DNA of 64,000 nt from an uncultured Opitutia bacterium (GCA_903820035.1 CAIJFT010000286.1:102-64101), one strand, 5' to 3'. Shown: positions 8,400 to 55,277, numbered from the stretch's first letter. Numbers and translations: made by a program. The notes: generated from the letters alone by a model not told the origin.

Positions 8400-8423
8400 G
8401 TAGCCCTGCGCGTAAGCGCAGGG
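8400..8423. repeat. GTAG-type REP-like palindrome (family A)
   Basis: GTAG CCCTGCGC GTAA GCGCAGGG; related copies at 51671-51694, 51799-51822 (inverted) and a degenerate one at 32619-32641. Confidence 0.8.
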
Positions 8424-8517
8424 TCCAAGCCCTTCCCGACTTTAGCTGCACTCAGCCGCAGTGGTAGCTGCGCGGGCCAGAGAGTGGCAGCTGGTTGTTT
8501 TGCCCGAAGATGAGTCG

Positions 8518-8599
8518 CACGCGGAGCCGCGGAGATCGAGGGGGGCGCGGAGACTGGCTTGATGTTCGCCCCGCGCCCTCCGCGCCGCCGCGTGAACCC
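8518..8599. repeat. Inverted-repeat element of the CGCGGAG periodic family
   Basis: Left arm cacgcggagccgcggaga is identical to 10958-10975; right arm ctccgcgccgccgcgtgaaccct resembles 11018-11040. Confidence 0.8.
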
Positions 8600-8697
8600 T
8601 TGCATCGTTCCGCCCGAACAATCCGCGCAGCGACAATCCCGCTTTCTGCCGCAACCAATCCCCCCGCGCTGCGTATGGCTGACGCACCCCACCTGCC

Positions 8698-10665
8698 ATG
8701 ATTTTCGTCCGCCACCTCCGTCCGCTCCTCCGCTTCGCCTTCGCCGTGCTGGCCGCCACCCTCGCCGGCGCCGCGCCGGCCCCGCGGCAGATGGAGACCC
8801 TCGGGCGCGGCGTCGTCGCCCTCAAAGCGGAAGACCACAAAATCTTCATCAGCTGGCGCGTCCTCGGCACCGACGCCCCCGCGCTCGCGTTCAACCTTTA
8901 CAGCGCCGCCGACGGCTCGGCTCCGGCCAAACTCAACGCCGCCCCGATCACCGGCGCCACCCACTTCTCCGACACCACCTTCGATCCCGCCCGGGCCAAC
9001 GCCTATTTCGTGCGCCCCGTCCTCGGCGGCGTCGAACAACCCGCGAGCGCCCGCTTTACCGTCGCGGCCGGCGCTCCGGTCCGCCCCTACCTCTCGATCG
9101 CGTTGCAGACGCCCCAAGGCTACACGCCGAACGATGTCTCGGTCGGCGACCTCGACGGCGACGGCGAGTACGAGATCATCCTCCACCAAACCGGCCGCGC
9201 CCGCGACAACTCCCAAGCCGGCGTCACCGACGAGCCGTTGCTCCAGGCCTACAAACTCGACGGCACGCGGCTCTGGACCATCAACCTCGGGAAAAATATC
9301 CGCGAAGGCGCGCATTACACGCAGTTCCTCGTGTACGACCTCGACGGCGACGGCCGCGCCGAAATCGTCTGCAAGACCGCCGACGGCACCGTCGACGGGA
9401 CCGGCCAGGTGATCGGGAACGCCGCCGCCGACTGGCGCACCCAAGGCGATGCGCCGGTCCCTTCCGCGGACAAGACCGGCAGCCGCACCACGCCCGACGG
9501 CAAGCGCGTGGCCTCCCGCGCCGGCTACGTCCTCGCGGGCCCGGAGTACCTCACCGTCTTCGACGGCCGCACCGGCCGCGCCCTGGCCACGACCGACTAC
9601 CTGCCCGCCCGCGGCGACATCAACAACTGGGGTGACGGCTACGGCAACCGCGTCGACCGCTTCCTCGCCTGCGTCGCCTACCTCGACGGCGTGCGCCCGA
9701 GCTTCGTCATGTGCCGCGGCTATTACACGCGCACGACGCTCGCCGCCTGGGATTGGCGTGACGGCAAGCTCACACCTCGCTGGTTTTTCGATAGCGATAA
9801 GTACGGTCCCGCGGATCGCTCCAACCCGTACCGCGGCCAGGGCAACCACAACCTGAGTGTCGCGGACGTCGACGGCGACGGGAAGGACGAGATCATCTAT
9901 GGCGCGATGTGTATCAACAGCGATGGCACGCCCCGGTACACGACCAAGCTCGGTCACGGCGACGCGCTGCACGTTTCCGATCTCGACCCGAACCGCCCCG
10001 GCCTCGAGGTCTTCGACATCCATGAAAACCCGCGCCATCCCTTCGGCCTCGAGTTCCGCGATGCCAACACCGGCGCGCTGATCTGGGGCAAACCCGACGG
10101 CGCGGAGAACGCCCCCGACGTCGGCCGCGGTTGCGCCGTCGACCTCGACCCGCGTTATCCCGGAGCGGAGATGTGGGGCTCAGGCGGACCGCGCGTCCGC
10201 GGCCTTTACAACGTGAAGGGCGAAAAGATTTCCGAGCGCAATCCGTCCTCCTGCAACTTCGCGGTGTGGTGGGACGGCGATCTCCTGCGTGAACTGTTGA
10301 ATTCAAACCGCATCGACAAGTGGAACTGGACCGACGGCACGGAGACCCGCCTGCTCACCGCCGAGGGCTGCACGTCCAACAACGGCACCAAGTCCACGCC
10401 CGCGCTCAGCGCCGATCTCTTCGGTGACTGGCGCGAGGAAGTGATCTGGCGCACGACCGACAACCAGGAACTGCGCATCTATTCCACAACGATCCCCACC
10501 GAACACCGCTTGTATACGCTGATGCACGATCCGCAGTACCGACTGGCGGTCGCCTGGCAAAACGTCGGTTACAACCAACCGCCTCACCCCGGCTTCTTCC
10601 TTGGCGACGGCATGAAGCCCGCCCCCCGACCGAACATCGTCACGGTCCCCGTCAAGGCCCCCTAG
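8698..10665 (+). CDS. Rhamnogalacturonan lyase, PL11 (YesW/YesX-like), secreted
   Basis: Signal peptide; repeated DxDGDG Ca-binding loops; REGAHYTQFLVYDLDGDGRAE, GQGNHNLSVADVDGDGKDEI, NNGTKSTPALSADLFGDWREEV, TLMHDPQYRLAVAWQNVGYNQPPH. Confidence 0.95.
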   Translation: MIFVRHLRPLLRFAFAVLAATLAGAAPAPRQMETLGRGVVALKAEDHKIFISWRVLGTDAPALAFNLYSAADGSAPAKLNAAPITGATHFSDTTFDPARANAYFVRPVLGGVEQPASARFTVAAGAPVRPYLSIALQTPQGYTPNDVSVGDLDGDGEYEIILHQTGRARDNSQAGVTDEPLLQAYKLDGTRLWTINLGKNIREGAHYTQFLVYDLDGDGRAEIVCKTADGTVDGTGQVIGNAAADWRTQGDAPVPSADKTGSRTTPDGKRVASRAGYVLAGPEYLTVFDGRTGRALATTDYLPARGDINNWGDGYGNRVDRFLACVAYLDGVRPSFVMCRGYYTRTTLAAWDWRDGKLTPRWFFDSDKYGPADRSNPYRGQGNHNLSVADVDGDGKDEIIYGAMCINSDGTPRYTTKLGHGDALHVSDLDPNRPGLEVFDIHENPRHPFGLEFRDANTGALIWGKPDGAENAPDVGRGCAVDLDPRYPGAEMWGSGGPRVRGLYNVKGEKISERNPSSCNFAVWWDGDLLRELLNSNRIDKWNWTDGTETRLLTAEGCTSNNGTKSTPALSADLFGDWREEVIWRTTDNQELRIYSTTIPTEHRLYTLMHDPQYRLAVAWQNVGYNQPPHPGFFLGDGMKPAPRPNIVTVPVKAP

Positions 10666-10734
10666 CCTTGGCGTCGCGCAGACTGATTCGCTTGGTTCAC
10701 TTCAGGATAGGGTGCGTTTCGCAGTCCATTACCC

Positions 10735-11178
10735 ACTCCGTGCAATCGGTGGTCTAATCCGGGCGACCCGTTTTAAGGCCGGATCATTTTAACCACAGCG
10801 CGCACCGAGTAGACGGAGTGGATAATACCTCGGACGGCGACGCCCATCAGTCAAAAGCCCCCCGGGCCGGAACCACGACCGCGGCCTTTGGTGTGTTTCG
10901 GGTATTTCTTGGTCCACCCTTCCGACCGGTTCCATCCGCCCTCCGACCAATCCATTTCACGCGGAGCCGCGGAGAACGCGGAGCCCAAGCCACCTGCTCC
11001 CCCGCGGTCTCCGCTCCTCCGCGCCCTCCGCGTGAACCCTTTTTACGCACTGGAGTCCCCACCCCCACTACCACGCCCCCCGCCCGGTCTTCTTCCGTGT
11101 TGTTCCGTGTGTTCCGTGGCCCCCCGGCTTGGTCCGCCGCCTGTCTCCGGCCTTTCGTGTATTTCGTGTGTTTCGCGG
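10735..11178. repeat. Cluster of triple-9-mer repeat arms and hairpins between convergent genes
   Basis: Arms at 10735-10753/10791-10819, 10886-10912, 10956-10983/11009-11036, 11092-11120 and 11152-11178. Confidence 0.85.
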
Positions 11179-11199
11179 TTTCTCCCGGGGTGGAGAAAC
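11178..11199 (-). terminator. Hairpin just downstream of the TBDR stop (possible terminator)
   Basis: gtttctcc-cggggt-ggagaaac, 8-bp stem; no clear U-tract. Confidence 0.4.
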
Positions 11200-11216
11200 A
11201 CCGACCGCGCCTCGCC

Positions 11217-14210
11217 TCAGAACCGACCGTTGATGCCGCCACTGATCGTCACGAAGTTGACGAGGGTGCGCTGGGTGCGGTCCTTCGGACCGCGGTAGAA
11301 GACTTGGGGCTCGTTGAAGATGTTCGCGGCATCGAGGCTCAGGCTCACACTCGGACGCACCTGGTAGGAGACGCCGACGTTCGTGGTCTTCATGGATTGC
11401 CGATAGAGACGCAGCGCCGGGGTGGCGTTATAGCTCGTGATGTATTCTCCCGTGAAGTTGTAGAGGATACGCGTGCTGAAATTACGATGGCGCCACGACA
11501 GCGAGGCGTTGGCCGCATGCGGGATGAATCCGGCCACATCGCGGCGAGTGAGGTAGGTCGTGCCGGTGTAGTTGCCGTGCGTGTCGATCCAGGTGTAGTT
11601 GAACGAACCGGCCAACCCCTTGAGCACGCCGGGCAAGAAGGTGAACTGCTGCCGGTAGGAAAATTCCCAGCCCTGCGCGATCGCGGAGTTGGCGTTGACG
11701 GAGCTGATTTCGGTCCAGCCCCCGTACTCGCCGTCGTAGCCGTTGCCCGGCCCGGTGCCGATGACGCCGACCTCTTGGTTACTGATAATATAGTCGCGGA
11801 TTTCTTTGTGGAACCAGCCGAGCGAGATCTGACCGACGGGCTCGAAATAATACTCGAGGCCGAGGTCCCAGGTGCGGGCGGTTTGCGGTTTGAGGCCGGG
11901 GTTGGCGATGGTCACGCGGCGGTTGGCCTCGTCGGGCGTCTCGGCGGGCAGGAAGTTGCCGAGGTCGGCGCGGCCGAAGCTCGTCGAGTACGCCGCGCGG
12001 AACTTGAGGTTGGTCGTGAGATCGTGAAACGCGTGGATGCTCGGGAACGCCTTCCGGTAGTCGGCGCTGAGCTTGCGGTCGTTGTTCGCGTAATCGCGTT
12101 GGGCGGAGCCCACGGGATCGGCCACCTGTTGCGCCGCGCTGCTCAACACCCGCGCGCGGACCCAGCCCCAGCTGTCCACGGTGGTGTCCTCCACGCGGAC
12201 GCCGCCGAGAAAGCCGGTGCGGCCCAGAAAGCCCTCGGTGCCGAGCCGGCCCTGGGTCATGGCGTAGGCGGCGGAGGCCGTCTCGGTCAGCCCGCGGGTG
12301 GCGGTGAATTTCTGCGTCTCGTTATAGTAGCGATCCTCCACCCAGAGCGAGGAGTTGAGGGGCCGGCGCTGGTCCATGAACGCATTGGAATACCAGCGGG
12401 GAAACACGAAGCCGGTCTCGCGGGCGTTGTAGATGCCGATCGTGGGATCCGTGGGGAGCGCGGGCCCGTTGGCGAGGTAGGACCAGCGGTGGTTGTCCTT
12501 GCCCCAGATATCGAGCACCTGCTCGCGCCAGGAGACGCCGGCCTTGAGATAGAGGGGCGTGGAGACCGGCAACTGGTAGCGGGCATTGAAACGAGCCTGC
12601 GAGAGCTGCTGGTCGTTCTGGTTGTTGCCATTGACCAGACCGTTGGCGATCGGGCGGTAGAGGCTGCCGTCGCGGATATCCGGCCCGCCGTTTTGCGTGA
12701 AGCGAGGGAACAGGTCGGAGTTGGTCCGATCGATGATCCAGCCGGCGCCGGCGAGGCGCATCGTGAGAGAGCCCGAGGTGCCGTCGCCGTTGTTGAGATG
12801 CGTGTAGCCGATACCGGCGGTGTAATCGATCTGCCAGTTGCGGTACTCGTGGTCGCCGGTAAAATCAGCCCGGCGCGTACGCACGACATAATTGCGCGGG
12901 CCGTCGATCAGGATGTCGACGTTGTTGGCGGCGACGGGCCGGATCGTGGTCACGCGATCATTGAAGGCGCCAGGCACGACGCCGGTGGTGGCGCTCGGGA
13001 CGGTGGTGGCGCTGCCGGTGTAAGCGCGCGCCTCCATGCGGCGGCGGAAGCGCTCGATATTGTTGTTGCCGAGCAACGTCACCGAGAAGCGCGAGGTCGG
13101 CGACCAGCGGTAGTCGGTGCGGAGACTGAGGCTCGACTGCTTGCGGTTGTTGAAATTATCCCAGACGCGGTAGTCCCAGATATAGGCCTCGGGTGCGGGC
13201 GTATTTTGGTAGTCGAAAGTCGTGCTGGTGCCGCCGACGGCGTTTTCGCTGTAGAAGGCGTTAACCGCGACGGCGAGGTTGCGCGTGCCGCCGAAGACAT
13301 CGAATAGTTCCTGGTGGGCGATGTTGGCGAGCGGATGGGAGCGGTGCTGCTCGCGGATGGGAACTTGTTCAAAGAAGGGCGGCGCCCAACGTCCGGTCAG
13401 ACTGTAGGTCGTGCGGCGCTTTTCGCGCATGCTCAGGGGCGAGCGGGTCTTCAGGTTGAGCGTGGCACCCAGCGAATCGGCGCCCTGGTCGGGCCGGTGG
13501 CCCTTGGTGAGTTCAAGTGCCTCGAACATGGTGCCGGTGATGCTTTGCAGCTCGAAGGCCCGACTGGTGCCGAGGCTTGGCATCAGACCGCCGTCGACCG
13601 TCACCGTGTTCAGTCCCGGGGCCATGCCCCGCATGTTGAACTGATAGTTGAGACCCTCGTCGGTCGGGCTGCCGGCGACGCCGGGGAGGCGCATCACGAC
13701 TTCGCCCGCGCTCATGTTCGGCAGGTTGCCGAACGAATCCATCGCGACCACATTCTTGAGCGTCTCCGAGTTGCGCTGGCTCGTGAGCGCGACGGCTTCG
13801 CCTTCGCGGGCGCCGGTAACCTTGAAGGCCTCCAATTTGTAGATCCCGGTCGTGAGGTCAAAGTTGCGGTCGGCGCGCGCGCCATCGGCGAGGGTCACCT
13901 GCACGCGCGCGGCGTCCAGGCCGATGTAGGACACCAACAGTTCATGCGTGCCGGCCGGCAGGCCGCTGAGCACATAACGGCCGGTCTCGTCCGCGAGCGC
14001 CGAGCGGCCGAGCGCGGGCACCTGCACGCGCGCGCCTTCCAGCAGGTTGCCGGTGGCGGCATTGCTGACGGTGCCGGCAATGACGCCGTTGTCGGCGGCG
14101 AATGCGGTCGGGCGGGCGCCCAACACCGCGCAGGCGGCGAGCAGGACGGCGAACGCGGCGGAGCGCACACGCACGGCGGGACGGGAACACAGGAAGGCAC
14201 GGGGATTCAT
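11217..14210 (-). CDS. TonB-dependent receptor with carboxypeptidase-regulatory-like N-domain
   Basis: 997 aa from ATG 14210 (MNPRAFL...AADNGVIAGTVSNAATGNLLEGARV); EGEAVALTSQRNSETLKNVVAMDSFG plug motif; NPGLKPQ; C-terminal INGRF. Confidence 0.93.
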   Translation of the reverse strand: MNPRAFLCSRPAVRVRSAAFAVLLAACAVLGARPTAFAADNGVIAGTVSNAATGNLLEGARVQVPALGRSALADETGRYVLSGLPAGTHELLVSYIGLDAARVQVTLADGARADRNFDLTTGIYKLEAFKVTGAREGEAVALTSQRNSETLKNVVAMDSFGNLPNMSAGEVVMRLPGVAGSPTDEGLNYQFNMRGMAPGLNTVTVDGGLMPSLGTSRAFELQSITGTMFEALELTKGHRPDQGADSLGATLNLKTRSPLSMREKRRTTYSLTGRWAPPFFEQVPIREQHRSHPLANIAHQELFDVFGGTRNLAVAVNAFYSENAVGGTSTTFDYQNTPAPEAYIWDYRVWDNFNNRKQSSLSLRTDYRWSPTSRFSVTLLGNNNIERFRRRMEARAYTGSATTVPSATTGVVPGAFNDRVTTIRPVAANNVDILIDGPRNYVVRTRRADFTGDHEYRNWQIDYTAGIGYTHLNNGDGTSGSLTMRLAGAGWIIDRTNSDLFPRFTQNGGPDIRDGSLYRPIANGLVNGNNQNDQQLSQARFNARYQLPVSTPLYLKAGVSWREQVLDIWGKDNHRWSYLANGPALPTDPTIGIYNARETGFVFPRWYSNAFMDQRRPLNSSLWVEDRYYNETQKFTATRGLTETASAAYAMTQGRLGTEGFLGRTGFLGGVRVEDTTVDSWGWVRARVLSSAAQQVADPVGSAQRDYANNDRKLSADYRKAFPSIHAFHDLTTNLKFRAAYSTSFGRADLGNFLPAETPDEANRRVTIANPGLKPQTARTWDLGLEYYFEPVGQISLGWFHKEIRDYIISNQEVGVIGTGPGNGYDGEYGGWTEISSVNANSAIAQGWEFSYRQQFTFLPGVLKGLAGSFNYTWIDTHGNYTGTTYLTRRDVAGFIPHAANASLSWRHRNFSTRILYNFTGEYITSYNATPALRLYRQSMKTTNVGVSYQVRPSVSLSLDAANIFNEPQVFYRGPKDRTQRTLVNFVTISGGINGRF

Positions 14211-14490: not shown

Positions 14491-14583
14491 CACTTGACCC
14501 TTGTCACTTGCCCCCTCGCCCCCACCCCTCTCCCCTTCCCCTTCCCCTTCACTCGCGCTTTCCCCTTCACTCGCCCTTTCCCT
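14491..14583. repeat. Pyrimidine-rich tandem repeats upstream of sbcD
   Basis: 7-mer triplet cacttga-cccttgt-cacttgc (14491-14511); 18-nt direct repeat ttccccttcactcgc(g/c)ct twice (14542-14577). Confidence 0.7.
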
Positions 14584-14590
14584 CCCCGTC

Positions 14591-23098: not shown

Positions 23099-24022
23099 AT
23101 GTCATCCCTCGCTCCCCTCCTCGTCCGAATCAGCTTCCTGTTTGCACTGCTCCTCAGCCCCGCTGTCACCCGGGCCGAGCTCGGAGTGATTCGGGATAAC
23201 GGCGCGTTTTTCTCCGAGTCGGCCAAATCCGAAGCCAGCCGGCATATCGGAGAAATCGGGGGCCGTTTCAAAAAGGACCTCGTGGTCGACACCTTCAAGG
23301 GCATCCCCGACGACATCAAGCAGGGGGTAAACCTGCAGGACCGCGCGGCCGTGAACCGCATGTTTGAACAGTGGACGGTCCGGCTGGCGCGCCAGCAGCG
23401 GGTCAACGGCATCTACATCCTCCTGACCAAGGAACCAGCCCATCTCCAGATCGTCGTCGGCAACGAAACCCAGGTCTCCCTCTTCACTTTGAAGGATCGT
23501 GACGCACTCGTCAGCTCGATGCTGGCCCGGTTACGCAATAAACAAAATGACGAGGCCCTGCAGGACGGAGTAAACTTTGTCTCCGCCACAATGAAGGCAC
23601 GGGCGGTCGCACGCAACGCCCGCCCGACTCCGGCGGCGAGCAGCGCCCCCGTTGAAGCGACCAGCCCGTGGGGCTGGGTTGTCGCCGCCTTGATCGGCTT
23701 CGTGGTGGCGTGGATCGTCGTGGGACTCATCCGTTCCATGATGCAGCGCTCCGGAAGCGCGGCGACGCCCGGAGCGGCGCCCAGTTCCGGCGGCGGATTC
23801 CTCTCCTCACTCCTCGGCGGCATGCTCGGCGCCGCCGCCGGTATGTGGCTGTATGACCAGTTCTCGGGTCATAATGACTCCGATCACAACCGGGGATCAG
23901 CGGACGACGCCGGGAACTCCCGGAGCGACACCGACTACTCGAGTTCCGGTGATAGCTTCAGCGACGACTCGAGTGGCGGCGATGCGGGCGGCGGCGGGGA
24001 CTCAGGCGGCGGCGATTTTTGA
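23099..24022 (+). CDS. TPM-domain (YgcG/Psb32/MOLO-1-like) membrane protein with Gly/Asp/Ser-rich tail
   Basis: ATG 23099; signal peptide; VIRDNGAFFS...GIYILLTKEPAHLQIVVG...NDEALQDGV TPM pattern; TM helix; low-complexity acidic C-terminus. Confidence 0.75.
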   Translation: MSSLAPLLVRISFLFALLLSPAVTRAELGVIRDNGAFFSESAKSEASRHIGEIGGRFKKDLVVDTFKGIPDDIKQGVNLQDRAAVNRMFEQWTVRLARQQRVNGIYILLTKEPAHLQIVVGNETQVSLFTLKDRDALVSSMLARLRNKQNDEALQDGVNFVSATMKARAVARNARPTPAASSAPVEATSPWGWVVAALIGFVVAWIVVGLIRSMMQRSGSAATPGAAPSSGGGFLSSLLGGMLGAAAGMWLYDQFSGHNDSDHNRGSADDAGNSRSDTDYSSSGDSFSDDSSGGDAGGGGDSGGGDF

Positions 24023-24481
24023 GGCCCAAAAAACCGCACGGCCGCGGGTCATTCCGTTCGCAAGCCTCGCGGCCTGAGTTGAGGTAAGAACACCACGAAA
24101 TCCCCTCCAGCGCGGTGAAGCGCGGCGGTGAACTGTCGTTACGGGCAGACGAAGGCGCTACGGACGGACCAGAGTCCAGCCGAGCGGATAAGCCGATATC
24201 GCGCTGCCCCGCGCGGCTCGGTTCCCAGAGAGCGACGCTGCCGCTTTGCCGTCACCGACCATCTGCGCGCACAGCCGGGACGCGCAGCCCGTCGTGAATT
24301 TGGAAATCTCCGGTAGAAAAGCCCGAAAAACACCCCCCTATTATTGGGGGGCTCATCCGTTCGATAATAGATTGAAACGCACGAACCGAGGCCGTCCATA
24401 GTCGCCGCTCCCCACGCCCTTGAACGAGTTCGATGCCAGCCAACGCCAACGGCTAGCGAGGACTCAAACGGTGATTTCCGC

Positions 24482-24742
24482 ATGCTCGCACCCATATCAT
24501 TAGCTCCCGCCGGCCAAATATTCCTCAGCGGAAAGCGCTGGTGCGAATTCCACTTCTTCGACTCGGCCGTCTCGCTAGAACAGTGGCTGGCGACCAATCA
24601 CGGTGAAGACGCTTTCAGCTACGGATGGTTCGACAACGACGGAAACGCCTTCGAGGTCTGCGTGCGAAAAGTGAAGCACGGCGATCTGACACTCTACGTC
24701 AGCTCCGAAGCAACCAACACAATCGGCTCCTGGAACGACTAA
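24482..24742 (+). CDS. Hypothetical 86-aa protein
   Basis: Non-GC-biased, aromatic-rich, protein-like composition (WCEFHFFD...YGWFDNDG); stop overlaps the convergent RHH gene by 4 nt. No family recognised. Confidence 0.5.
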   Translation: MLAPISLAPAGQIFLSGKRWCEFHFFDSAVSLEQWLATNHGEDAFSYGWFDNDGNAFEVCVRKVKHGDLTLYVSSEATNTIGSWND

Positions 24743-25032
24743 CGCCGCAACCGCTGCTTCACTTGGTCGGCACGCAGCATCTTCTTTGCAGCGGCGAGTT
24801 TCTCCGCCAAGAGAGCCGGCTCCCCGCCGCCCCCGAGTTCCGACCTCACGTGATCCCTCAGCACCTTGCGCACATAATCGCTGAACACCCGGTCATTGGC
24901 TTCCGCGAGCGTCCGCAGTGCATCTTTAACCTCTTGATTGATCCCGATGGTCAACGACACGACCCCCTCGGCGCGTTGATTGTGTCGCGTGCGAGCCGGT
25001 AATTTTTGTTCAGCACCCTTGAGGTCGGCCAT
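24739..25032 (-). CDS. Ribbon-helix-helix (CopG/Arc/MetJ-like) DNA-binding protein
   Basis: From ATG 25032 (track ORF starts 25092): VSLTIGI strand, NQEVKDALRTLAEAN helix, FSDYVRKVLRDHV helix. Confidence 0.7.
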   Translation of the reverse strand: MADLKGAEQKLPARTRHNQRAEGVVSLTIGINQEVKDALRTLAEANDRVFSDYVRKVLRDHVRSELGGGGEPALLAEKLAAAKKMLRADQVKQRLRR

Positions 25033-26629: not shown

Positions 26630-26659
26630 AAAAAAGGGCACCGGTAAAGGTGCCCTTTT
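26630..26659 (-). terminator. Intrinsic terminator downstream of tRNA-Glu (potentially bidirectional)
   Basis: aaaaaa-gggcacc-ggtaaa-ggtgccc-tttt. Confidence 0.85.
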
Positions 26660-40196: not shown

Positions 40197-40481
40197 GTCG
40201 CGCCGGTGCGATCCGCCCCCCCTCGGGTCGTTGCGGTGCGACCGCCACTTCAATCCAGCGCGATGGGACGTCGGGCCCCGCCCCACTCAGGTGTTTAGGC
40301 TCGCCGGTTCCAGCCTGCCCCTGCACCGAGGCCCGGCGCTGAAGCGGTTCCGCAATCTCTGTCGCCTCGTTTGAGCCGGAGGCAAAAACGTGGGCCCGCC
40401 AGAGCACACCTTGATCGCTGCGCTCCAACGCGGATACGCTAAACCTGAAACGGTGCAGCCCGGAAAACTGCCCTACCCGCT

Positions 40482-41294: not shown

Positions 41295-41352
41295 GGAATC
41301 AGAGAAGGGAGGATTGCGCGCCGGCCGCAATCAAACAACCGGCGGAGTTTGG

Positions 41353-41590
41353 CCCACGGAACACACGGAGAACACGGAAGCGGAAGCCAACCTTCGAAAG
41401 CCGGTGGCTACGAGCGCTCGCGGGCGGCGAATGTGGCCATTCCGATCGATGCAAAGGTTCACGCGGAGCAGCGGAGGTCGCGGAGATTGATCCTGCCCTC
41501 CCTTCCTGCCCCCCCCCGCTTTTCACCTCACCCGCCGCCCTGAACAAGGGAGCCTCGGCGCACTTCCGTGTCTTCCGTGTGTTCTGTGGG
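41353..41590. mobile_element. 238-bp MITE/REPIN-like element with 28-bp terminal inverted repeats
   Basis: 41353-41380 cccacggaacacacggagaacacggaag vs reverse complement of 41563-41590 cccacagaacacacggaagacacggaag: 25/28 identical; no internal ORF. Mobility is inferred only. Confidence 0.55.
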
Positions 41591-41614
41591 CTACTGGATT
41601 GCCGGGCCCGGCAC

Positions 41615-43210: not shown

Positions 43211-43290
43211 GTTGAAAGTCATCCGTTGAAAGTTGAAAGGCACGGACGGCAGAAGCCCCGGCTTTAAACGTTCAACCATCAACGTTCAAC
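43211..43290. repeat. Inverted pair of 7-mer tandem arrays (STRR-like hairpin)
   Basis: gttgaaa-gtcatcc-gttgaaa-gttgaaa ... tttaaac-gttcaac-catcaac-gttcaac. Confidence 0.75.
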
Positions 43291-43313
43291 CGCCCGGCCC
43301 GACCGGGCCGGGC

Positions 43314-44228
43314 TTACAGCAGACCCTGATAGGCGAGCCAGAGCGCCCGGAAATATTTCATCAGCCGCACCGGATCTTTGCTCTCGGGAATTTCGGCGAA
43401 CGTGTAGCCCTTGAACCCGCTCGCGCTCAGACTCGTCAGCAGTTTCCGGAAAGGATACTCCTCGAGGTAGAGATCCCGCAGGTGGACCGTGAAAATCTTG
43501 CCCTTGAGGGCGGCGAAATTGCGATCCCAGCCGTCGCCCTGCAGGTCGGTCTGGTTCGAATTCCAGCACGCACCCACGTTCGGGTGGTTGGCGAAGTCGA
43601 GAATCTGCTTCGCGTTGCTCACGAGCTGCGTGCCGTTGCCGTGTACCTCCATCCGAATCTGCTGACCGTGGCTTGCGCCAAACTCGCCCAGTTCCCGCAA
43701 CGAACGGCCGATTTGCTCGAGGGTTTTCTCCACGGGCACGCCGTTCGGCAGGCCGTTCGGGCGCACCTTTACGCCCGTTGACCCGACGTCCTGCGCAAGC
43801 ACGATGTACTCCTTCGTCAGCTCGATGTCCTGCCGGAGCTTTGCCTGATCGGTCGTATGATAGTCGAACGCGCTGCCCATGCTCGCTAGTTCCACCGGGG
43901 AATCGGCAAAACGTTTCTTCACCTCGGCCCGCTCGGCCTTGCTGAGCGTGACCTCGACGCCGTGCTTGTGCGAGGTGCGCAGCTCGACGCCGTCAAACTT
44001 CGCCTCCGCACAATTCTTGATGATCGTCGCGATGTCCCAATCCATTGCGATATTGTACGTCACCGTGCCAAGCTTCATCGGCGACTTGCCGGCGAAGCTC
44101 GGTTGCGGCGCGGACGGCGCCTTGGCCTTGTCTTTTTTGTCCGCGGCGAAAGCCGCGGTGGATAGGGCGCCAAGCGCGCCGAGGCTGACAGACGCGGTCC
44201 TGAGGAACTGACGACGGGATGAGTTCAT
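43314..44228 (-). CDS. Tat-exported sugar phosphate isomerase/epimerase family TIM-barrel protein
   Basis: ATG 44228; SRRQFLR twin-arginine; GVELR, MEVHG, VHLRD, FAEI. Confidence 0.85.
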   Translation of the reverse strand: MNSSRRQFLRTASVSLGALGALSTAAFAADKKDKAKAPSAPQPSFAGKSPMKLGTVTYNIAMDWDIATIIKNCAEAKFDGVELRTSHKHGVEVTLSKAERAEVKKRFADSPVELASMGSAFDYHTTDQAKLRQDIELTKEYIVLAQDVGSTGVKVRPNGLPNGVPVEKTLEQIGRSLRELGEFGASHGQQIRMEVHGNGTQLVSNAKQILDFANHPNVGACWNSNQTDLQGDGWDRNFAALKGKIFTVHLRDLYLEEYPFRKLLTSLSASGFKGYTFAEIPESKDPVRLMKYFRALWLAYQGLL

Positions 44229-48736: not shown

Positions 48737-48862
48737 GTAGGCCAGCGCGCTTGCGCGCGCCCCACGGAGCGGCGCTTTCCGAAGCGGCGCTTCACGTAAA
48801 GCCGGCGGTTGGGAAACCGCCGCTCCGACCGGCAATCCGCGCTCGCGAGCGAGCTGACCTAC
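48737..48862. repeat. Nested REP doublets (outer GTAG pair enclosing an inner inverted pair)
   Basis: Outer 48737-48760 vs reverse complement of 48839-48862: 20/24. Inner 48765-48791 vs reverse complement of 48801-48827: 21/27. Confidence 0.85.
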
Positions 48863-48944
48863 GCCACGCCGCGCGGGGCGGTTTCGATTGCCAACGTCCG
48901 CGCTGTAACCACAGGGTTACCTCGCCCCTTCTTATCTTATCTCC

Positions 48945-50321
48945 ATGCAATCGCCCTCCCCTGCCACCCGTCGCACGTTCCTGAAAACCCTCGGCGCCGC
49001 TGGCGTCGCCGCCCCGTTCATCGCCCGCAGCCTCCGCGCCGCGGCACCAAGCGGCGTCCTGCGCCACGTCAGCTTCGGCTCGGCCGGCATGGCCTGGGCC
49101 GACCTGCAGGCGATCACCAGCAATCCATTTGTGAAGCTCGTCGCGGTCGCCGACGTCGATCTCAACCGCACGAAGCAGGTGAAGGAGGCGTTCCCCGATG
49201 TGAAGGTCTATCAGGACTGGCGCCAGTTGCTCGACAAGGAGAAGAACAACTTCGACTCCGCCAACGTTTCCACCCCGGACCACATGCACGCCGCCATTGC
49301 GATGTCCGCGATGCAACTCGGCAAGCACGTCTACTGTCAGAAGCCGCTCGCACACGACATCTACGAGACGCGCATGCTCACCAACTACGCCCGCGAGAAG
49401 AAGCTCGTGACGCAGATGGGCATCCAGATTCATTCTTACAAGGTGTACCGTCAGGCCGTCGCCCTCGTGCAGAGCGGCGTCATCGGCAAGGTCAAGGAAG
49501 TCCACACCTGGAGTAACAAGAAATGGGGCGACCTCGGCGCACCCGTGGTCAAATACGACCCGGTACCGTCGAATCTCGACTGGGATATTTGGCTCGGCGG
49601 CGCGGCGGCGCGGCCGTTTGTCGGCGGCGGTTATTATCACCCGAGCAACTGGCGCAAGCGGCTCGACTTCGGCACCGGCACGTTCGGTGACATGGGCTGC
49701 CACATTTTTGATCCGGTGTTCGAGGCGCTGGCATTGACGTCGCCACTGTCCCTCCGCTCCGAGGGTCCGGCACCGGACCAGTGGAATTGGGCGGTCAACG
49801 CGAAGATTCACTACGTCTTCCCGGGCACGAAATTCACCGAGGACAAAACGGTGCCGATCACCTGGTACGACGGCGACGAGCGTCCGCCGGCGGAGATCCG
49901 CGCGCTGATCGAAACCCCGGCCGCCGAGGCCGCGGCCAAGTCGGGCAAACGCAAAGGCGGCGAAGCCGACAATCAGGGTTCGATCATCATCGGCACGCAG
50001 GGCGTGTTGCACATCCCGCACGTCGCGGCGCCGAAGCTGTTCCCGATCGCCAAGTTTAAGGACTACAAGCTCCCCGAGTGCGAACAGGGGCACCATTGGA
50101 CCGAGTGGGCCGAGGCGTGCATGAAGGGTGGCAAGCCCGGCGCGAACTTCGATTACTCGGGCCCGCTCACCGAAGCGGTGCTGCTCGGCAGCGTCGCGGT
50201 GCGCTTCCCGAAGACGAAGCTCGAGTGGAACGGCGCGAAGCTGCAATTCGACAACGAACGCGGCGCGAACCAGTTCCTCCGCCGCACTTACCGCAAGGGT
50301 TGGGAAGTCGCAGGCTTGTAA
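48945..50321 (+). CDS. Tat-exported Gfo/Idh/MocA oxidoreductase
   Basis: TRRTFLK; NVSTPDHMHA, KHVYCQKPLA, GTFGDMGCH. Confidence 0.93.
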   Translation: MQSPSPATRRTFLKTLGAAGVAAPFIARSLRAAAPSGVLRHVSFGSAGMAWADLQAITSNPFVKLVAVADVDLNRTKQVKEAFPDVKVYQDWRQLLDKEKNNFDSANVSTPDHMHAAIAMSAMQLGKHVYCQKPLAHDIYETRMLTNYAREKKLVTQMGIQIHSYKVYRQAVALVQSGVIGKVKEVHTWSNKKWGDLGAPVVKYDPVPSNLDWDIWLGGAAARPFVGGGYYHPSNWRKRLDFGTGTFGDMGCHIFDPVFEALALTSPLSLRSEGPAPDQWNWAVNAKIHYVFPGTKFTEDKTVPITWYDGDERPPAEIRALIETPAAEAAAKSGKRKGGEADNQGSIIIGTQGVLHIPHVAAPKLFPIAKFKDYKLPECEQGHHWTEWAEACMKGGKPGANFDYSGPLTEAVLLGSVAVRFPKTKLEWNGAKLQFDNERGANQFLRRTYRKGWEVAGL

Positions 50322-50439
50322 GCCCGGAGCTTCAGCGTCGGGCGCGGGTTCAGTCCCGGCCCGACAGCGTCGGCGCGATTCAGCATCGCGTCTTTCTGCT
50401 CGCCGCACCTTCCCTGCCCGCGGCACGCTTCGCCTGAGC

Positions 50440-51657
50440 ATGAAGAACGGACTCCACCCCGGCCAGACCGGAGATCTGCTTTGGGTCGTCGATCCAACGA
50501 TGACAATCACCCTCGGCGGACTCCCGGCCGCGACCGTGTTTTCAACGCCGTTCATGATCATGCTCATGGAACGGGCGGCCCGGGAGGCCCTGCGGCCGTT
50601 TCTCGAGGACAGCGAGGAATCGGTCGGCGTCGAAGTTCAAGTGGAGCACCTGGGGCCCGCCGCCCTCGGCGACACCGTCCGGGGCTTAGCCCGCGTCACC
50701 GCCGTGGACGGACGCCGCGTGCATTTCGCCGTGCAGGCCTTCGCCGGTGACCGCGAAATTGGCCGCGGCACCCATCGTCGGGCCGTCGTGAATCTCAATC
50801 GGATCGTCGAAAACGTGGAAAAACTCTGTGGCGATCAGGGTCGGGCTCTCGCGCTTGAACCCAATCCTGGCAACCTGCCGCCCCTCGAAACGCTGCGCGT
50901 GGCGACCAAGGACCGGGTGACCACGGTGACGTTTCGCCGGCCGGATGCACTCAACGCGGTCAACGTACGGATGACCGGTGAATGGGAACAGGTCATGAGT
51001 TGGCTGGCCGGTCATCCCGAGGAGGTCCGCGTGGCCATCCTGACCGGTGCCGGTAGCGCCTTTTGCGCTGGCGACGACGTGAAGGAACTGGCGTCGCTTT
51101 CGCTCGACGAGGCGCGCCGCCTCAGCCTGCGGCAGGCGAACCTTTGGCTGGCGGCCGAACGGTTGCCGCAGCCCGTCATCGCGGCAGTCAACGGCCCGGC
51201 CCTTGGCGCCGGCTGCGTGGCCGCCTACTCCTGCGATTTCCGCGTCGCCGCGCATGCCGCAACCTTCGGGATGCCCGAAATCAAGCTCGGCTGGCCGCCG
51301 GGTTACGGCGTGGCGCAACTGACCGCGATCGTGGGTAAGGCCCGCGCGTTGGAACTCTGCCTGCTTGGCGAATCCATCCCGGCGACGAAGGCGCTGGAGT
51401 GGGGTCTCGTGCACGAGGTTGTGCCCGGCGCGATGCTGCTCACCCGCGCGCAACACCTTGCCGACCGCCTGCTCGCGTTGCCCGCCGAAGCCCTGCGTGC
51501 CACCAAACGGCTCGTGCATGCGGACGAAGGTCAACTACCCAAGATCACGCATCGCGCCGACACCGAGGCGTACATCCGTTGCCTCGCCCTACCCGATGCG
51601 CAGGAAGGGATCGCCGCTTTCGCCGCGAAACGAAAACCACAGTTCCGCGGAAAGTAG
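50440..51657 (+). CDS. FlK-type hotdog thioesterase fused to crotonase (enoyl-CoA hydratase/isomerase) domain
   Basis: ATG 50440; VFSTPFMIMLME and VEHLGP (FlK Thr/Glu/His pattern); FCAGDD, NGPALGAGC, FGMPEIKLG, DAQEGIAAFAAKRKPQF. Confidence 0.85.
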   Translation: MKNGLHPGQTGDLLWVVDPTMTITLGGLPAATVFSTPFMIMLMERAAREALRPFLEDSEESVGVEVQVEHLGPAALGDTVRGLARVTAVDGRRVHFAVQAFAGDREIGRGTHRRAVVNLNRIVENVEKLCGDQGRALALEPNPGNLPPLETLRVATKDRVTTVTFRRPDALNAVNVRMTGEWEQVMSWLAGHPEEVRVAILTGAGSAFCAGDDVKELASLSLDEARRLSLRQANLWLAAERLPQPVIAAVNGPALGAGCVAAYSCDFRVAAHAATFGMPEIKLGWPPGYGVAQLTAIVGKARALELCLLGESIPATKALEWGLVHEVVPGAMLLTRAQHLADRLLALPAEALRATKRLVHADEGQLPKITHRADTEAYIRCLALPDAQEGIAAFAAKRKPQFRGK

Positions 51658-51670: not shown

Positions 51671-51822
51671 GTAGTCCTGCGCGTGAGCGCAGGGAATCCG
51701 TCGCCTTCCGCTCATAGTCGACCCGGCCGCCTGGCGGGCGCCCGCCACGGGGCGGGCCTATTTCGGAAAATCCGGACCGCACGTCCGAGCCACATGCGCC
51801 CTGCGCTCACCCGCAGGGCGAC
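51671..51822. repeat. REP family A doublet enclosing a degenerate inner inverted pair
   Basis: 51671-51694 vs reverse complement of 51799-51822: 21/24. Inner units at 51717-51739 and 51740-51761 (ATAG GCCCGCC CCGT GGCGGGC on the minus strand). Confidence 0.8.
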
Positions 51823-51837
51823 GTGCAGCCGGCGCCC

Positions 51838-54105
51838 TCACTTCTTCATGATCGCGTACACGCTCGCGAAGTCATCCGTCCAAAGCACGCCGGGTTTCTT
51901 ACTGGTCTCGGGGCCTTCCGCGATCTCGCGAATGCGCTCCTTCTCAAGCAACGCCTTGTTCTTCGTCACGAGCATCCACGAGGTCGCATAGATCCACCAA
52001 TCGGGCTCGTTGTCGTCCGACATGTGCACGACCTCGAGACCGAAGTGCGAGGCGAGCTTTTCCACGACCGGGCGCAGATCGAGATAACGGTTGGAAATAT
52101 GCACCGCGAGCACCCCGTCCGGCTTCAGCTGACGCAGGTAGATTTCAAACGCCTCCTTGGTCAACAAGTGCACCGGAATCGCATCGCTGCTGAACGCGTC
52201 GAGTGCCAGCAGGTCGAATTGCTGCGACTGTTTCTCCTGCAGTTCGCGTTCCATCATCAGGCGCGCATCACCCATCACGACATCGAGCTTGGCTTGGCAG
52301 TACTCGAGGTACTTGAAGTGCGTGCGCGCGAGTTCCTGCACGACGGGGTTGATCTCGTAAATGCGCAGGTAGTCGCCCTTGCGGCCGTAAGTCGCGAGCG
52401 TACCGGTGCCGAGACCGACGAGACCGAGGCGGCGCGGCGCCTCCGGCAGTGAACTGATCGCACGACCGACGCCGCTGGTGTCGCAATAATAGGTCGTTGG
52501 GGTCATCGCCTTCTCCGGCTTCACAAACTGGATGCCGTGGGTGGTCGCACCGTGCAGCAGGAGGTGGTAGTTATCCTCGGCATCGTCGGGGTAGTAGTTG
52601 AAGACCTTCAGCGTGCCGTAGAAGTTACGCGTCGAGCTGAGCGTCGGGACACTACTGCGCTCACCCCACTGCATCACGAAGACCGCACCGACACCGACGC
52701 AGAGGATCATGACAAAGAGGCCCGCGCGCGGCAGCCACTCGCGGCTCAGCGCCCGACGGCGGAGGTCGAACAGACATCCGATAATCAGCACCAGGCCCGC
52801 GACGATGTAGGGTGCGCGGTCGCGAAAAAAGGCCGTGCCCTCCGCGAGCAGACCGGGGCTGTCCTCAAAATTCGAGCGCAGCCACGGTAAGCCGACCGTC
52901 GTGAGCAGCGCGCCCACCGCGGCGGCCAGCGCCAGCTCGCGGCTCCGATGGCGGAAACACAGGACGCCGAGCGCGTAGCTGAGCAACCAGAGCCCGAGCT
53001 GAAGTTCGCGGTAGTCGCGGAACAGTGCCGGGGCCACGATGGCGACGAGGAAACCGCCCAGCGCCCCGCCGGCGGAGATAAAGAGGAAGTACGAGGTCAG
53101 TTGCTGGGGCGGCGGCTTCAGCCGGTAGAGTTCACCGTGACAAACCATGCAGGCCACAAAGAGGGTCGCGGTGTAAGCGATGATCTGCAGGCGCATCGGC
53201 GCGTCGTTACCGACGGGCAGCAACTGGCAAACGAACGCGGTGCCGATAAAAAACAACGCCGTGAAAATCCCGCGGTGGTACCAGCGCGCGTGGTCAAAGC
53301 AGACAATGAAGGTGACCAGATACAGGCTGAGCGGGAGCACCCAAAGGAAGGGAATGACGGCGACCTCCTGACAGAGCTTATTGGTCGTGGCCAGCAGCAG
53401 CACCGAGGCGATGGCCGGCAGCGCGACCCAAAGCAGTTTATCCACGGCTTGCGGCGACTCTCCGGCCGGCGCGGCCGCGGGCGGAGTGGCGGTCGCAGCG
53501 GAAGCGATCGGCACCGTTCCATCACCCTTGCGCCAGACCAGAACGGCGCAGTAACCGCAGACCAAGACAAAGAAGCCCAACCCCACCGACCACATCGTCG
53601 CCTGGGTCTGCCGGGGGAAATTCACCTCGAAGAACAACGGATAGCTGAGCAGGGCGAGCAGCGAACCGACATTGGATAACGCGTACAAGCGGTACGGTGA
53701 CACCCCCGGATTCGTCCGGCTGAACCATTGCTGCATCAGCGGGCCGGTCGACGACAACACGAAGTACGGGAGGCCGATCGTGGCCAGCAAAAGAAGGAGG
53801 ATCTGCAGGTTCGGGTCGCCCGATACCTGCACGTGCCAGCCGGCCGACGGCGTGATCGGCAGCATCGCCAGCGACAGGGCCATCAGAATGAAGTGCACGA
53901 TCACCTGCCGCTTCGGCGTGAGCCGCGTCGACGAAAAGTGCGCGTACGCATAGCCCCCGAGCAGCACCATCTGAAAGAACAGGAGGCAGGTGGTCCATAC
54001 GCCCGGGCCGCCACCGAACCAGGGCAAAATATATTTACCAATCAAGGGTTGGACCTGAAACAGCAGGAAAGCTCCCGTGAAAATCGTGAGCGCGAAGGGC
54101 AACAT
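51838..54105 (-). CDS. Fused membrane domain / spermidine-synthase-like SAM-dependent transferase
   Basis: ATG 54105; many TM segments (FQVQPLIGK, PYRLYALSNVGS); LHGATTHG, VGLGTGT, YEINP, LDAFSSDAIPVHLLT. Confidence 0.88.
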   Translation of the reverse strand: MLPFALTIFTGAFLLFQVQPLIGKYILPWFGGGPGVWTTCLLFFQMVLLGGYAYAHFSSTRLTPKRQVIVHFILMALSLAMLPITPSAGWHVQVSGDPNLQILLLLLATIGLPYFVLSSTGPLMQQWFSRTNPGVSPYRLYALSNVGSLLALLSYPLFFEVNFPRQTQATMWSVGLGFFVLVCGYCAVLVWRKGDGTVPIASAATATPPAAAPAGESPQAVDKLLWVALPAIASVLLLATTNKLCQEVAVIPFLWVLPLSLYLVTFIVCFDHARWYHRGIFTALFFIGTAFVCQLLPVGNDAPMRLQIIAYTATLFVACMVCHGELYRLKPPPQQLTSYFLFISAGGALGGFLVAIVAPALFRDYRELQLGLWLLSYALGVLCFRHRSRELALAAAVGALLTTVGLPWLRSNFEDSPGLLAEGTAFFRDRAPYIVAGLVLIIGCLFDLRRRALSREWLPRAGLFVMILCVGVGAVFVMQWGERSSVPTLSSTRNFYGTLKVFNYYPDDAEDNYHLLLHGATTHGIQFVKPEKAMTPTTYYCDTSGVGRAISSLPEAPRRLGLVGLGTGTLATYGRKGDYLRIYEINPVVQELARTHFKYLEYCQAKLDVVMGDARLMMERELQEKQSQQFDLLALDAFSSDAIPVHLLTKEAFEIYLRQLKPDGVLAVHISNRYLDLRPVVEKLASHFGLEVVHMSDDNEPDWWIYATSWMLVTKNKALLEKERIREIAEGPETSKKPGVLWTDDFASVYAIMKK

Positions 54106-54387
54106 GGTGATGCGGGCTGGGATGGGATGGGGGAAGTCTGGACGAATCCGGAAACCGTGCATGACGGACGACATCGGGAATCGATGCAATGCTGCGCGTG
54201 GGCGGCGCGACCGTTGGCCGAGGATTCGTCCCGCGTTTGCCGGTTCACCCGACGAGGCAGACGGGAGTCGCTTGCAGAACGCCCGGTCGACGGCAGGCCG
54301 ACCGGACAATTTCACCCCGCGGCCCCGAATCGCGGAACCCACCCGATTCGGCGTGAGTCCGACGGGCTCGTGCTGCAACCTCCGCCC

Positions 54388-55029
54388 ATGCTTCCCGGTT
54401 TACGCCTCTGGTTGGCGTTTTGCCTACTTTGGACCTGCGCGTCCGGGGGCGACGCCGTCGAACCACGTTTCTCCCAGATCCTCGGCAAGGCTGACCGTGA
54501 GGCGGCGGGAATCGTGCGGCTGAACTCCGATGAAGTCGCCGTGATCGACGCCCTCGTCCGCCGCGACACCGTGGCGCGCCTCAACGCTAACGCCGCTTCA
54601 AAGCTGGCCGAGCAGTTCTCCCAACGCCTGACCCCAGGCGAACGCCAAACCTCCGGCATCGGCAAACTCAGCCCCACGGAACTCACGCAACTCGACGGTC
54701 TGGTGGACCGCCATCAAAACGCCCGCCTCGCCCGTACGCTCCTTGCGCCGCCCGCGTACCTTTCCCGCAGCGGTCCGGTGCGAACCACTGAAACGAAACG
54801 GGAACGGGAAATCCACGGCACCTTCTCCCTCAGCTACGGGATCGGCAGCGGCGGCTACAGCGAGAAGTCGGGCTCCACCACCCTCACCCTCGAGGATCCC
54901 GCGAAGGGTTACTCCGTGACGCTCGGCTACAGTGAGACGCACACAAAGGGCGGGCCGGTTTACCGCGACCCGAGATACGATTACTCCCGCGGGATGCCGC
55001 TGGACCTCGCCGCCACCCCGCGTCCTTGA
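54388..55029 (+). CDS. Hypothetical secreted protein with an internal ~35-aa duplication
   Basis: ATG 54388; signal peptide; FSQILGKADREAAGIVRLNSDEVAVIDALVRR vs FSQRLTPGERQTSGIGKLSPTELTQLDGLVDR. Confidence 0.7.
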   Translation: MLPGLRLWLAFCLLWTCASGGDAVEPRFSQILGKADREAAGIVRLNSDEVAVIDALVRRDTVARLNANAASKLAEQFSQRLTPGERQTSGIGKLSPTELTQLDGLVDRHQNARLARTLLAPPAYLSRSGPVRTTETKREREIHGTFSLSYGIGSGGYSEKSGSTTLTLEDPAKGYSVTLGYSETHTKGGPVYRDPRYDYSRGMPLDLAATPRP

Positions 55030-55277
55030 TCGACCGTGGTTATCGGATGGCGCAGGCTGGAGACCAACCCACGTGCCAGCCTCCCGACAGGAGTAATGCC
55101 GTTGAAGGTTTCAGGTAGAGCGTTGAAAGCCCCGGTCCAGGGGCGCAGTTGGCCCAAGTTCCAACCGAGGCGCCCATTTCCCCGAGCCGGCCACGTGGGG
55201 CAGAAAGAGAACCCGCCCCCGCGTCAGTCGGTTTGCCTGCCACCGCAACCAAGCTCCTTAAAACCGCCTGAGCCGGC

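Follow-up and report, generated by a model that had tools for sequence, protein, structure and literature searches.

Analysis of a 64,000-nt stretch of DNA from an uncultured Opitutia bacterium (contig C286, positions 102-64101; hereafter the window) indicated that the intergenic space of this Opitutaceae genome probably houses two unrelated and independent repeat systems. System A comprises repetitive extragenic palindromic (REP) elements and their hairpin-forming doublets (REPINs), while system B comprises periodic-arm hairpins, in which each arm is made of short units repeated in phase. The periodic-arm hairpins are apparently of an undescribed kind and represent gene-less copies of small cassettes that carry either a GxxExxY or a four-helix-bundle gene. 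The original prediction, made from the window alone, had proposed a single multi-family repeat system; at least two independent systems were found instead, both occupying the same permissive intergenic space. The source genome comprises 6.05 Mb in 469 contigs with 65% G+C, and the window proteins place its nearest named relatives in Horticoccus and Opitutus (Opitutaceae, Verrucomicrobiota).

Every gap between genes in the window was read and the gene calls were checked with Pfam. Genome-wide gene calls were obtained with a crude GC3 filter that covered 80% of the genome, and the "noncoding" fractions are therefore approximate. All repeat copies of the window were located outside gene calls. 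A periodic arm was defined as three cores at the right spacing, with the dinucleotide-shuffled genome as control. The genome contained 93 GTTGAR, 31 CACGRA, 29 CGCGGAG and 13 GGGAGT arms, compared to, respectively, 1, 3, 1 and 1 in the shuffled sequence. A complementary partner was present within 500 nt of about 61% of the periodic arms (101/166), and it was located downstream of the purine-rich arm in 101/166 and upstream in 11/166. The arms start with GCCCACGG, AACCACG, GGTTCACG or GTTGA, and neither the GTAG head of REPs nor a Y1 gene of the REP-associated tyrosine transposase (RAYT) type accompanies them. In accordance with the original prediction, the listed repeats were present at their places between genes, in genome-wide families far above chance when genome and shuffled counts were compared. 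Its claim that the arms usually form inverted pairs applies to the 61% with a partner, and fails at 10886-11180, where three arms run in the same direction. Most window copies folded far better than shuffled sequences (z = -3.7 to -6.3), with the exception of two decayed copies, and no Rfam family was found for any of the repeats.

The genome contains four GxxExxY genes (129-139 bits for PF13366, cut-off 22; 131-137 bits for TIGR04256, cut-off 35) and three four-helix-bundle genes (54-110 bits for PF05635, cut-off 33.8; 59-101 bits for TIGR02436, cut-off 24). The GxxExxY gene on contig C457 is located between GTAGCCCACGGAATACACGGAAGACACGGAAA and its complement, which is the arm of the window element at 41352/41563, and its predicted protein retains, as judged by eye, GFLEAVY, the Asp of EADF and the LEIKA motif. 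The four-helix-bundle genes are enclosed by GTTGAGA-type arms on C229, GGTCAGA-type arms on C332 and GGGAGAG-type arms on C135. The survey was extended to 58 cargo loci (32 GxxExxY and 26 four-helix-bundle) from 20 species of the genus, using the fragmented assemblies of these relatives; the genus has 77 GxxExxY and about 90 four-helix-bundle loci, or roughly 170 in all. A flanking inverted-arm score of at least 29 was obtained for 23/32 GxxExxY loci and 23/26 four-helix-bundle loci, compared to 1.1% of 473 random small genes used as controls. Among the scoring loci, the arms had a period of 9-10 in 20-22 of 27 GxxExxY loci and a period of 7 in 21-22 of 24 four-helix-bundle loci. The GxxExxY arms are built of CACGGAA, CACGAAA, CACAGAG, CACTGAT, CGCGGAG, CGCGAAG or CGCTAAT units, with the common core CRCNRA, and the four-helix-bundle arms of GTTGAGA, GTTGAAA, GTAGCGR, AGGAGTC, GGCTAGA or GTGACRT units. 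Similar arms around small genes of these two families in other genomes had been mentioned in the original prediction; they were found here as CACGGAA arms on C457 and GTTGAGA arms on C229, and the rule extends across the genus. No description of this arm rule was found in the literature on the GxxExxY, PDDEXK_3, 23S_rRNA_IVP, S23p and STRR (short tandemly repeated repetitive) families.

Other genes were considered as cargo and rejected. The genes on C271 and C37, which we read from sequence as RsmE and PyrH, each lie between two separate hairpins, and the units on either side of the small open reading frames (ORFs) on C326, C111 and C362 are ordinary REP type 3.

Comparison of orthologous loci revealed how the cassettes are inherited and lost. 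The C457 cassette (C457:15217-15684) lies between the genes for an ABC ATPase and its permease, and is intact at this locus in G000, G001, G004, G005, G007 and G015. The gene carries a TGA stop codon in G017, is frameshifted in G018 and is partly deleted in G003, while G002 has a mini-gene that joins the first 32 and the last 17 codons between CACGAAA arms. The gap at this locus is just 20-65 nt in G006, G008, G009, G010, G011 and G013. In G014, the orthologous junction (L098:2240-2340) holds a gene-less GTGACNA 7-mer hairpin, which belongs to the other class; sites of this kind are therefore shared by the two classes. The arm dialect at the locus varies among species (CACGGAA, CACGAAA or CGCGAAT), with all units of both arms changed together. 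Gene-bearing cassettes with similar proteins were mostly found at orthologous loci, with a divergence similar to that of their flanks.

The gene-less copies turn over faster than the gene-bearing cassettes. Junctions filled in the window were empty or differently filled in relatives, as the comparison of filled and empty sites suggested in the original prediction made clear. At the junction of the window that holds the CACGGAA-type element at 41352-41591, the flanking genes abut without a spacer in G003, and a CGCGAAT-type hairpin, the dialect of this species' own cassette, is present in G017. Neither G017 nor a relative with 95% protein identity has the 7-mer hairpin at 43213. In this latter relative, both CACGGAA arms at 41352-41591 are 28/29 identical each, compared to 65% identity in the 182-nt spacer, and the CGCGGAG arm nested in this spacer (41455-41485) is 23/30 identical, which indicates that it is decaying.

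The abundance of gene-less arms followed the presence of the cassette. The number of arms per species ranged from 0 to 212 for CACGGAA and from 0 to 84 for CACGAAA, with about 0 for a reversed-pattern control, a spread that reveals lineage-specific bursts. The ten species with a cassette or its remnant at the C457 locus had 7-114 arms, compared to 0-6 in the seven species with an empty site (hand-counted exact rank-sum p about 2e-4, uncorrected for phylogeny). After subtraction of the cassette's own arms, only G002, in which the gene is destroyed, overlapped the empty group.

Taken together, these data suggest the following course of events. The full element is a promoterless cassette of about 450 nt, composed of a purine-rich arm with three or four tandem units, one small gene and the complementary arm; a period of 9-10 with the core CRCNRA goes with a GxxExxY PD-(D/E)XK nuclease gene and a period of 7 with a four-helix-bundle gene (23S-rRNA-IVS/Avd-like; IVS, intervening sequence). 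The gene-bearing cassette is a long-term, mostly single-copy resident of a fixed operon junction, and the gene-less form probably arises from it through internal deletion, and then multiplies and turns over at other intergenic sites, especially stop/start junctions and the loops of other hairpins. The cassette protein would recognise its own phased repeats, probably as DNA, and may copy or maintain the gene-less hairpins in trans, a role comparable to that of RAYTs towards REPINs. The original prediction had likewise proposed a different trans-acting protein for the 7/9-mer arms, and the association of arms and genes together with the species-level correlation lends support to such a role. On this basis, it is tentatively proposed, as a possibility that at present falls short of being probable, that the GxxExxY and the four-helix-bundle "23S-IVS" proteins may be the partners of two parallel, undescribed RAYT-like systems, each having its own phased arms, vertical inheritance at one junction, a sustained population of gene-less hairpins in the same dialect, and a protein and dialect that change together.

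Several results weigh against the course of events outlined above, including the action of the cassette protein in trans. No gene-bearing cassette that matches the GTTGAAA, CACGAAA or GGGAGT dialects was found in this genome. G017, G018 and G003 have 31-114 arms despite a broken gene at the C457 locus, and the 86%-complete assembly of G031 has 296 arms and yielded no GxxExxY gene with CACGGAA arms. The cassette of G004 has CACGAAA arms, yet CACGGAA arms are commoner in its genome (10 v 2). The match between arms and the species' own cassette was accordingly mixed, with the CGCGAAT arms of G017 in agreement and those of G004 and G031 not. Since it is vertically inherited, mostly at orthologous loci, the whole cassette shows no recent mobility. 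Among three near-identical strains from different metagenomes, no movement of hairpins was observed, and two hairpin junctions differed only by single-base changes and a 2-nt indel. Finally, no target-site duplication was evident by eye.

Multiplication of the gene-less form is the point questioned by the strongest of the alternatives, in which each gene-less hairpin is an independent, in-place wreck of an inserted cassette. The internal deletion in G002 at the C457 locus is exactly of this type, the damaged genes of G003, G017 and G018 represent its earlier stages, and the short spacer of the C135 hairpin keeps about 15 nt resembling the inner flank of the cassette. Numbers argue against it: the genome has 81 distinct paired hairpins in four dialects compared to just seven cargo genes, G031 shows a burst of about 100 hairpins with zero-mismatch arms, and in 16 of 19 cases the spacer between a CGCGGAG arm and its partner measures 17-19 nt, which indicates copying of one gene-less master. 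Whole cassettes, furthermore, cannot seed so many sites because they appear to move rarely. Independent wrecks are therefore regarded as unlikely to account for the gene-less population.

Somewhat less probable again is that the arms act as RNA, forming an RNase III stem that excises the cassette or hairpin from operon transcripts, as in 23S rRNA intervening sequences, with arm conservation as the result of selection on the stem. The geometry corresponds to that of the Coxiella intervening sequence, which has a 28-bp terminal stem and a loop of about 400 nt with a four-helix-bundle ORF (PMC4990558). The cassettes have a ribosome-binding site and no evident promoter and are located at operon junctions, and their arms are conserved while the loops diverged, all of which would suit an excised RNA. 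Mismatches compatible with G·U pairing, however, were no commoner in the sense than in the antisense direction (28 v 30 in the hairpins without a gene, 29 v 34 in cassettes of the four-helix-bundle class and 29 v 41 in those of the GxxExxY class). Because such mismatches are not enriched on the transcribed strand, a constraint at the DNA or sequence level is favoured over an RNA stem. Selection on a stem alone would, in addition, leave unexplained the tandem periodicity, the gene-specific period and the solo and same-direction arms.

The same lack of a G·U excess on the transcribed strand of the gene-less hairpins speaks against a third explanation, by which the periodic hairpins were made in place through replication slippage and kept as terminators or mRNA-stabilising stems, with neither mobility nor a link to a protein. 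Their position, mostly just past stop codons or between genes, their good folds (z = -3.7 to -6.3) and their fixation among near-identical strains would fit such an origin. Slippage would hardly place one and the same 27-29-nt arm, with its outer end outside the repeats and a fixed succession of unit variants, at numerous unlinked loci across many species, nor does it account for the strict polarity of the arms, a copy number of 0 to 212 among congeners or a period that depends on the enclosed gene family. Most of the hairpins, moreover, have no T-run, and relatives carry ordinary terminators at the same place. Rare copies, sites fixed across relatives and the lack of any arm-flanked gene, which the original prediction had named as signs of slippage-derived terminators, were not what was found, and this origin is considered very unlikely. 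The least credible explanation, that all families including the periodic arms are substrates of Y1 (RAYT/IS200-like) transposases and the cargo genes are passengers, can point to the action of Y1 enzymes on DNA hairpins, to the three Y1 genes of the genome and to the start of the C457 arm (GTAGCCCACGG), which resembles the REP head GTAGCCCTGCG, but no Y1 gene is present at any of the 58 cargo loci examined, the REPs that flank the Y1 genes are non-periodic, other arm copies lack the GTAG head, and the split between periods of 7 and 9-10 follows the cargo family.

System B shares features with several known elements. As in the REP/REPIN elements with their RAYT (Y1) transposases (Bertels & Rainey, PMC3116915, PMC3337134; bioRxiv 10.1101/2021.07.10.451892), a single-copy gene flanked by its own repeats is vertically inherited at a fixed locus, many gene-less inverted doublets are present, and their abundance tracks the presence of the gene. 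Unlike REPs, the periodic arms have no GTAG head and consist of three to four phased tandem units, and their partner is a GxxExxY PD-(D/E)XK or four-helix-bundle protein rather than a Y1 HUH enzyme. The ORF-bearing 23S rRNA intervening sequences of Coxiella burnetii and Leptospira (PMC4990558) are also about 430-450 nt long, with a terminal inverted-repeat stem of about 28 bp around one four-helix-bundle (S23p, PF05635) ORF, an arrangement found at 23/26 four-helix-bundle loci of the genus. They differ from the copies described here, which lie between protein-coding genes and not in helix 25 or 45 of 23S rRNA, have periodic arms and a second cargo family (GxxExxY), and are mostly gene-less. 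The Ssn GIY-YIG single-strand nucleases, for which a role in transformation was shown, and their NTS repeats (PMC11893778) resemble system B in that a short repeat borders a small nuclease gene and also occurs between genes in hundreds of dispersed copies; the nuclease fold differs, however, and NTS consists of one short motif, whereas the arms here are inverted and built of phased units. In the NCBIfam scan, no GIY-YIG family was found for the cargo, which matched only PF13366, PF05635 and their NCBIfam counterparts. The heptamer tandem repeats of cyanobacteria and Beggiatoaceae (STRR; TAACTGA repeats, PMC4679880) are likewise intergenic tandem 7-mers with many copies and species-specific abundance, but were described mainly as direct arrays upstream of genes, and neither a link with four-helix-bundle or GxxExxY genes nor a rule of inverted arms was reported in the STRR literature searched. 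As in miniature inverted-repeat transposable elements, the terminal inverted repeats are common to a gene-bearing parent and its derivatives, and the mini-gene of G002, located between the arms at the parental locus, demonstrates an origin by internal deletion.

Bacterial interspersed mosaic elements combine several types of hairpin, nested units included, within a single intergenic region. The window shows comparable mosaics, with one unit inside another, at 8400-8610, 41352-41591 and 48737-48865; unlike them, the mosaic of the window mixes two mechanistically unrelated systems.

The periodic hairpins of the window are all gene-less copies, and since arm unit and period follow the cargo family, the CACGGAA, CACGAAA and CGCGGAG arms are assigned to the GxxExxY class and the GTTGAAA arms to the four-helix-bundle class. 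At 8516-8610, a degenerate CGCGGAG-type hairpin of the 9-mer class has a conserved outer end (CGCGTGAACCCTTGCATCG); its fold is no better than that of shuffled sequences (z = -0.4), and it is therefore a decaying copy. The CGCGGAG-type hairpin at 10954-11039 has three 8-9-nt units per arm and a strong fold (-46.8 kcal/mol, z = -6.3), and its unit also flanks GxxExxY genes in G006, G013 and G014. It is accompanied by three solo arms on the minus strand, a degenerate CACGAAA-type arm at 10886-10913, a CACGGAA-type arm at 11090-11120 and a CACGAAA-type arm at 11150-11180, the last of which forms a composite with the arm at 11090 and a spacer. No conserved synteny was found around 7700-11700, a region that includes 10666-11216, in the relatives examined. 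The gene-less CACGGAA-type element has its left arm of three 9-mers at 41352-41380 (plus strand), 90% complementary to the right arm at 41563-41591 (minus strand) and near-identical to the arms of the C457 cassette, and encloses a solo CGCGGAG-type arm at 41455-41485 (plus strand). A gene-less GTTGAAA 7-mer hairpin of the four-helix-bundle class is located at 43213-43290 (-26.9 kcal/mol, z = -3.7), and GTTGAAA arms flank four-helix-bundle genes in G014 and G031. A solo 7-mer arm (GTTGAAG GTTTCAG GTAGAGC GTTGAAAG) lies at 55098-55130 on the plus strand.

Two further observations concern periodic sequences. The composite at 10886-11180, in which a conserved spacer of about 33 nt (GGCGGACCAAGGCGG) joins a CACGAAA arm to a CACGGAA arm of the same direction, has other copies at C271:9780-10260 joined to C42:1-90 and at C58:9533-9722; these are not hairpins, and on C271 the composite is repeated three times beside a tRNA gene (recognised by eye). 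At 14512-14590, a periodic tract of CCCCTT/CCCTTTCCC is similar to the pyrimidine arm found in the four-helix-bundle cassette of C135, with no partner arm seen; the gene just downstream is presumably SbcD-like, as read from its first residues.

System A consists of four GTAG-headed dialects and the GGAGCGGCGG unit, with about 40-230 copies each genome-wide. The copy numbers of the REP types were 230, 154, 135, 112 and 43, compared to, respectively, 50, 22, 9, 12 and 11 in the shuffled genome, with 112-230 copies for each GTAG dialect and 43 for the GGAGCGGCG unit (9-50 in the shuffled genome), which has a GGAG head in place of GTAG. The palindrome GTAGCCCTGCGCGTGAGCGCAGGG and three more GTAG-headed palindromes are classical REPs, many of which occur as inverted doublets 55-66 nt apart. 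The families combine the GTAG head with an imperfect palindrome (folds with z = -4 to -5.5), are present in many extragenic copies (43-230), often as inverted doublets, as in known REP/REPIN-RAYT systems with their hundreds of extragenic copies. In agreement with the original prediction, the GTAG dialects belong, together with the GGAGCGGCGG unit, to the known kind of REP/REPIN elements that Y1 (RAYT) transposases move, and Y1 genes flanked by two of the dialects are present elsewhere in the genome. The window itself has no Y1 transposase, GxxExxY or four-helix-bundle gene by profile search (not every ORF was run against Pfam), and the absence of a transposase had also been stated before.

Three Y1 (PF01797) genes were found in the genome, all outside the window. 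The one on C141, which lacks the N-terminus, is flanked by REPs of the family GTAGGYCCGGCCGG, the one with 112 copies compared to 12 in the shuffled genome. The second is split over two contig ends (C210:1-400 and C10:6775-7475) with GGAGCGGCG units on both sides in the same orientation, and has an in-frame TAG at what we take to be a position where relatives would carry Tyr. The third, on C126, was considered as the RAYT of the main REP and rejected, as there is no REP on its contig. No Y1 gene was found beside REP types 1-3 in the 469-contig assembly.

In the window, a solo REP type 1 unit (GTAGCCCTGCGCGTAAGCGCAGGG) lies at 8400-8423 on the plus strand, 14 nt past the stop codon of a Mo-enzyme gene (-19.4 kcal/mol, z = -5.5); this type has 75 exact-head copies genome-wide, many in inverted doublets. 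The orthologous positions have plain terminators instead in G017, G003, G005 and G018, and what follows the gene that ends at 8385 varies across species, with plain terminators in some and other REPs or GTTGAAA arms in others. A decayed REP type 1 doublet at 32619-32693 folded no better than shuffled sequences. The four families that had been listed are all present, and two further GTAG families had been missed. One is the REP type 3 unit (GTA[GT]CCGCGTGGGAGC ... GCCTCCGGCTCAAACG) at 40356-40450 on the minus strand, with 11 BLAST hits and 135 copies compared to 9 after shuffling, and the other is the REP type 4-like unit (GTAAGCCCGGCCCGGTCGGGCCGGGC) at 43291-43316, also on the minus strand, the head of which overlaps a stop codon; it is placed in the family GTAGGYCCGGCCGG that flanks the Y1 gene on C141.

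Nesting of repeats had been proposed at three places, and it is clear at 41353 and 48737. The REP type 2 doublet at 48737-48865 (GTAGGCCAGCGCGC / GTAGGTCAGCTCGC, heads at 48737 and 48849) encloses a GGAGCGGCG...CGCCGCTCC double hairpin (48766-48834), also described as GGAGCGGCG-TTTCC double hairpins, and the whole element folds with -79.2 kcal/mol (z = -5.0). Type 2 doublets without an insert span 55-91 nt, and those with an insert 124-128 nt where both outer arms are intact. The GGAGCGGCG...CGCCGCTCC unit also stands alone, and the junctions vary among the composite copies. About 8 of the 14 loci of the GGAGCGGCG unit are in loops of type 2 doublets, and since such loops are a minute share of the intergenic DNA, its nesting is real. 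The more general claim that hairpin spacers are preferred insertion targets is well supported only for this unit inside the GTAGGCC REPIN. G017 and G001 lack the 48737 composite in the corresponding divergent promoter region. At the third place, a REP type 1 doublet between convergent genes (51671-51822, GTAG and GTCG heads at 51671 and 51799; -82.2 kcal/mol, z = -4.0), the 104-nt interior holds only a degenerate REP type 4-like doublet, a likeness judged by eye, and had no genome-wide BLAST depth.

Next to the 48737 composite, a conserved GATTGCCAA box is located upstream of a GFO/IDH/MocA gene at 48880-48925 and at the orthologous sites in G017, G010 and G001. It is followed by a GTAACCACAGGGTTAC palindrome in three of the four genomes, G001 having the box only. 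The box is probably an operator, with the REP composite just outside it.

The remaining gene content of the window is ordinary and includes a Mo-cofactor oxidoreductase, a rhamnogalacturonan lyase, a TonB-dependent receptor, TIM-barrel isomerases, an MFS transporter, a sulfite-oxidase-like enzyme, a GFO/IDH/MocA oxidoreductase and a thioesterase-crotonase fusion. The last is a single ORF at 50128-51657 (plus strand) that joins an FlK-type thioesterase domain to an enoyl-CoA hydratase domain. The only match of the window in the Rfam scan was a tRNA at 26705-26776. Beside it, an islet of low G+C at 24023-26704 (57% in 24001-26000 compared to about 65% overall) contains a PAS domain gene, of LuxR-type look by eye, and small ORFs without Pfam match; the ORFs tested included no integrase. 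At 1671-2470 (minus strand), eight 105-nt (35-codon) tandem repeats inside a 693-residue ORF are unrelated to the intergenic families and are probably TPR-like coding repeats. At 56582-61207, two adjacent minus-strand genes share blocks 69-76% identical at a 2874-nt offset, and a third gene shares shorter motifs, one of them P-loop-like by reading; these genes are probably paralogous ATPases.

The REP part of these findings is ordinary. The periodic hairpins, in turn, break assemblies, insert into operon junctions and promoter regions, and can be mistaken for terminators or CRISPR-like arrays. TIGR04256 (GxxExxY) and TIGR02436 (four helix bundle / 23S rRNA IVS protein) are large and widespread families without known function, and since each is tied to a specific periodic DNA partner, a concrete candidate substrate for bench work is now available for each. 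That the abundance of gene-less arms follows the cassette across the genus suggests that REPIN-RAYT may not be the only class of long-lived, vertically inherited systems of a gene and its repeat population, and that a second one exists.

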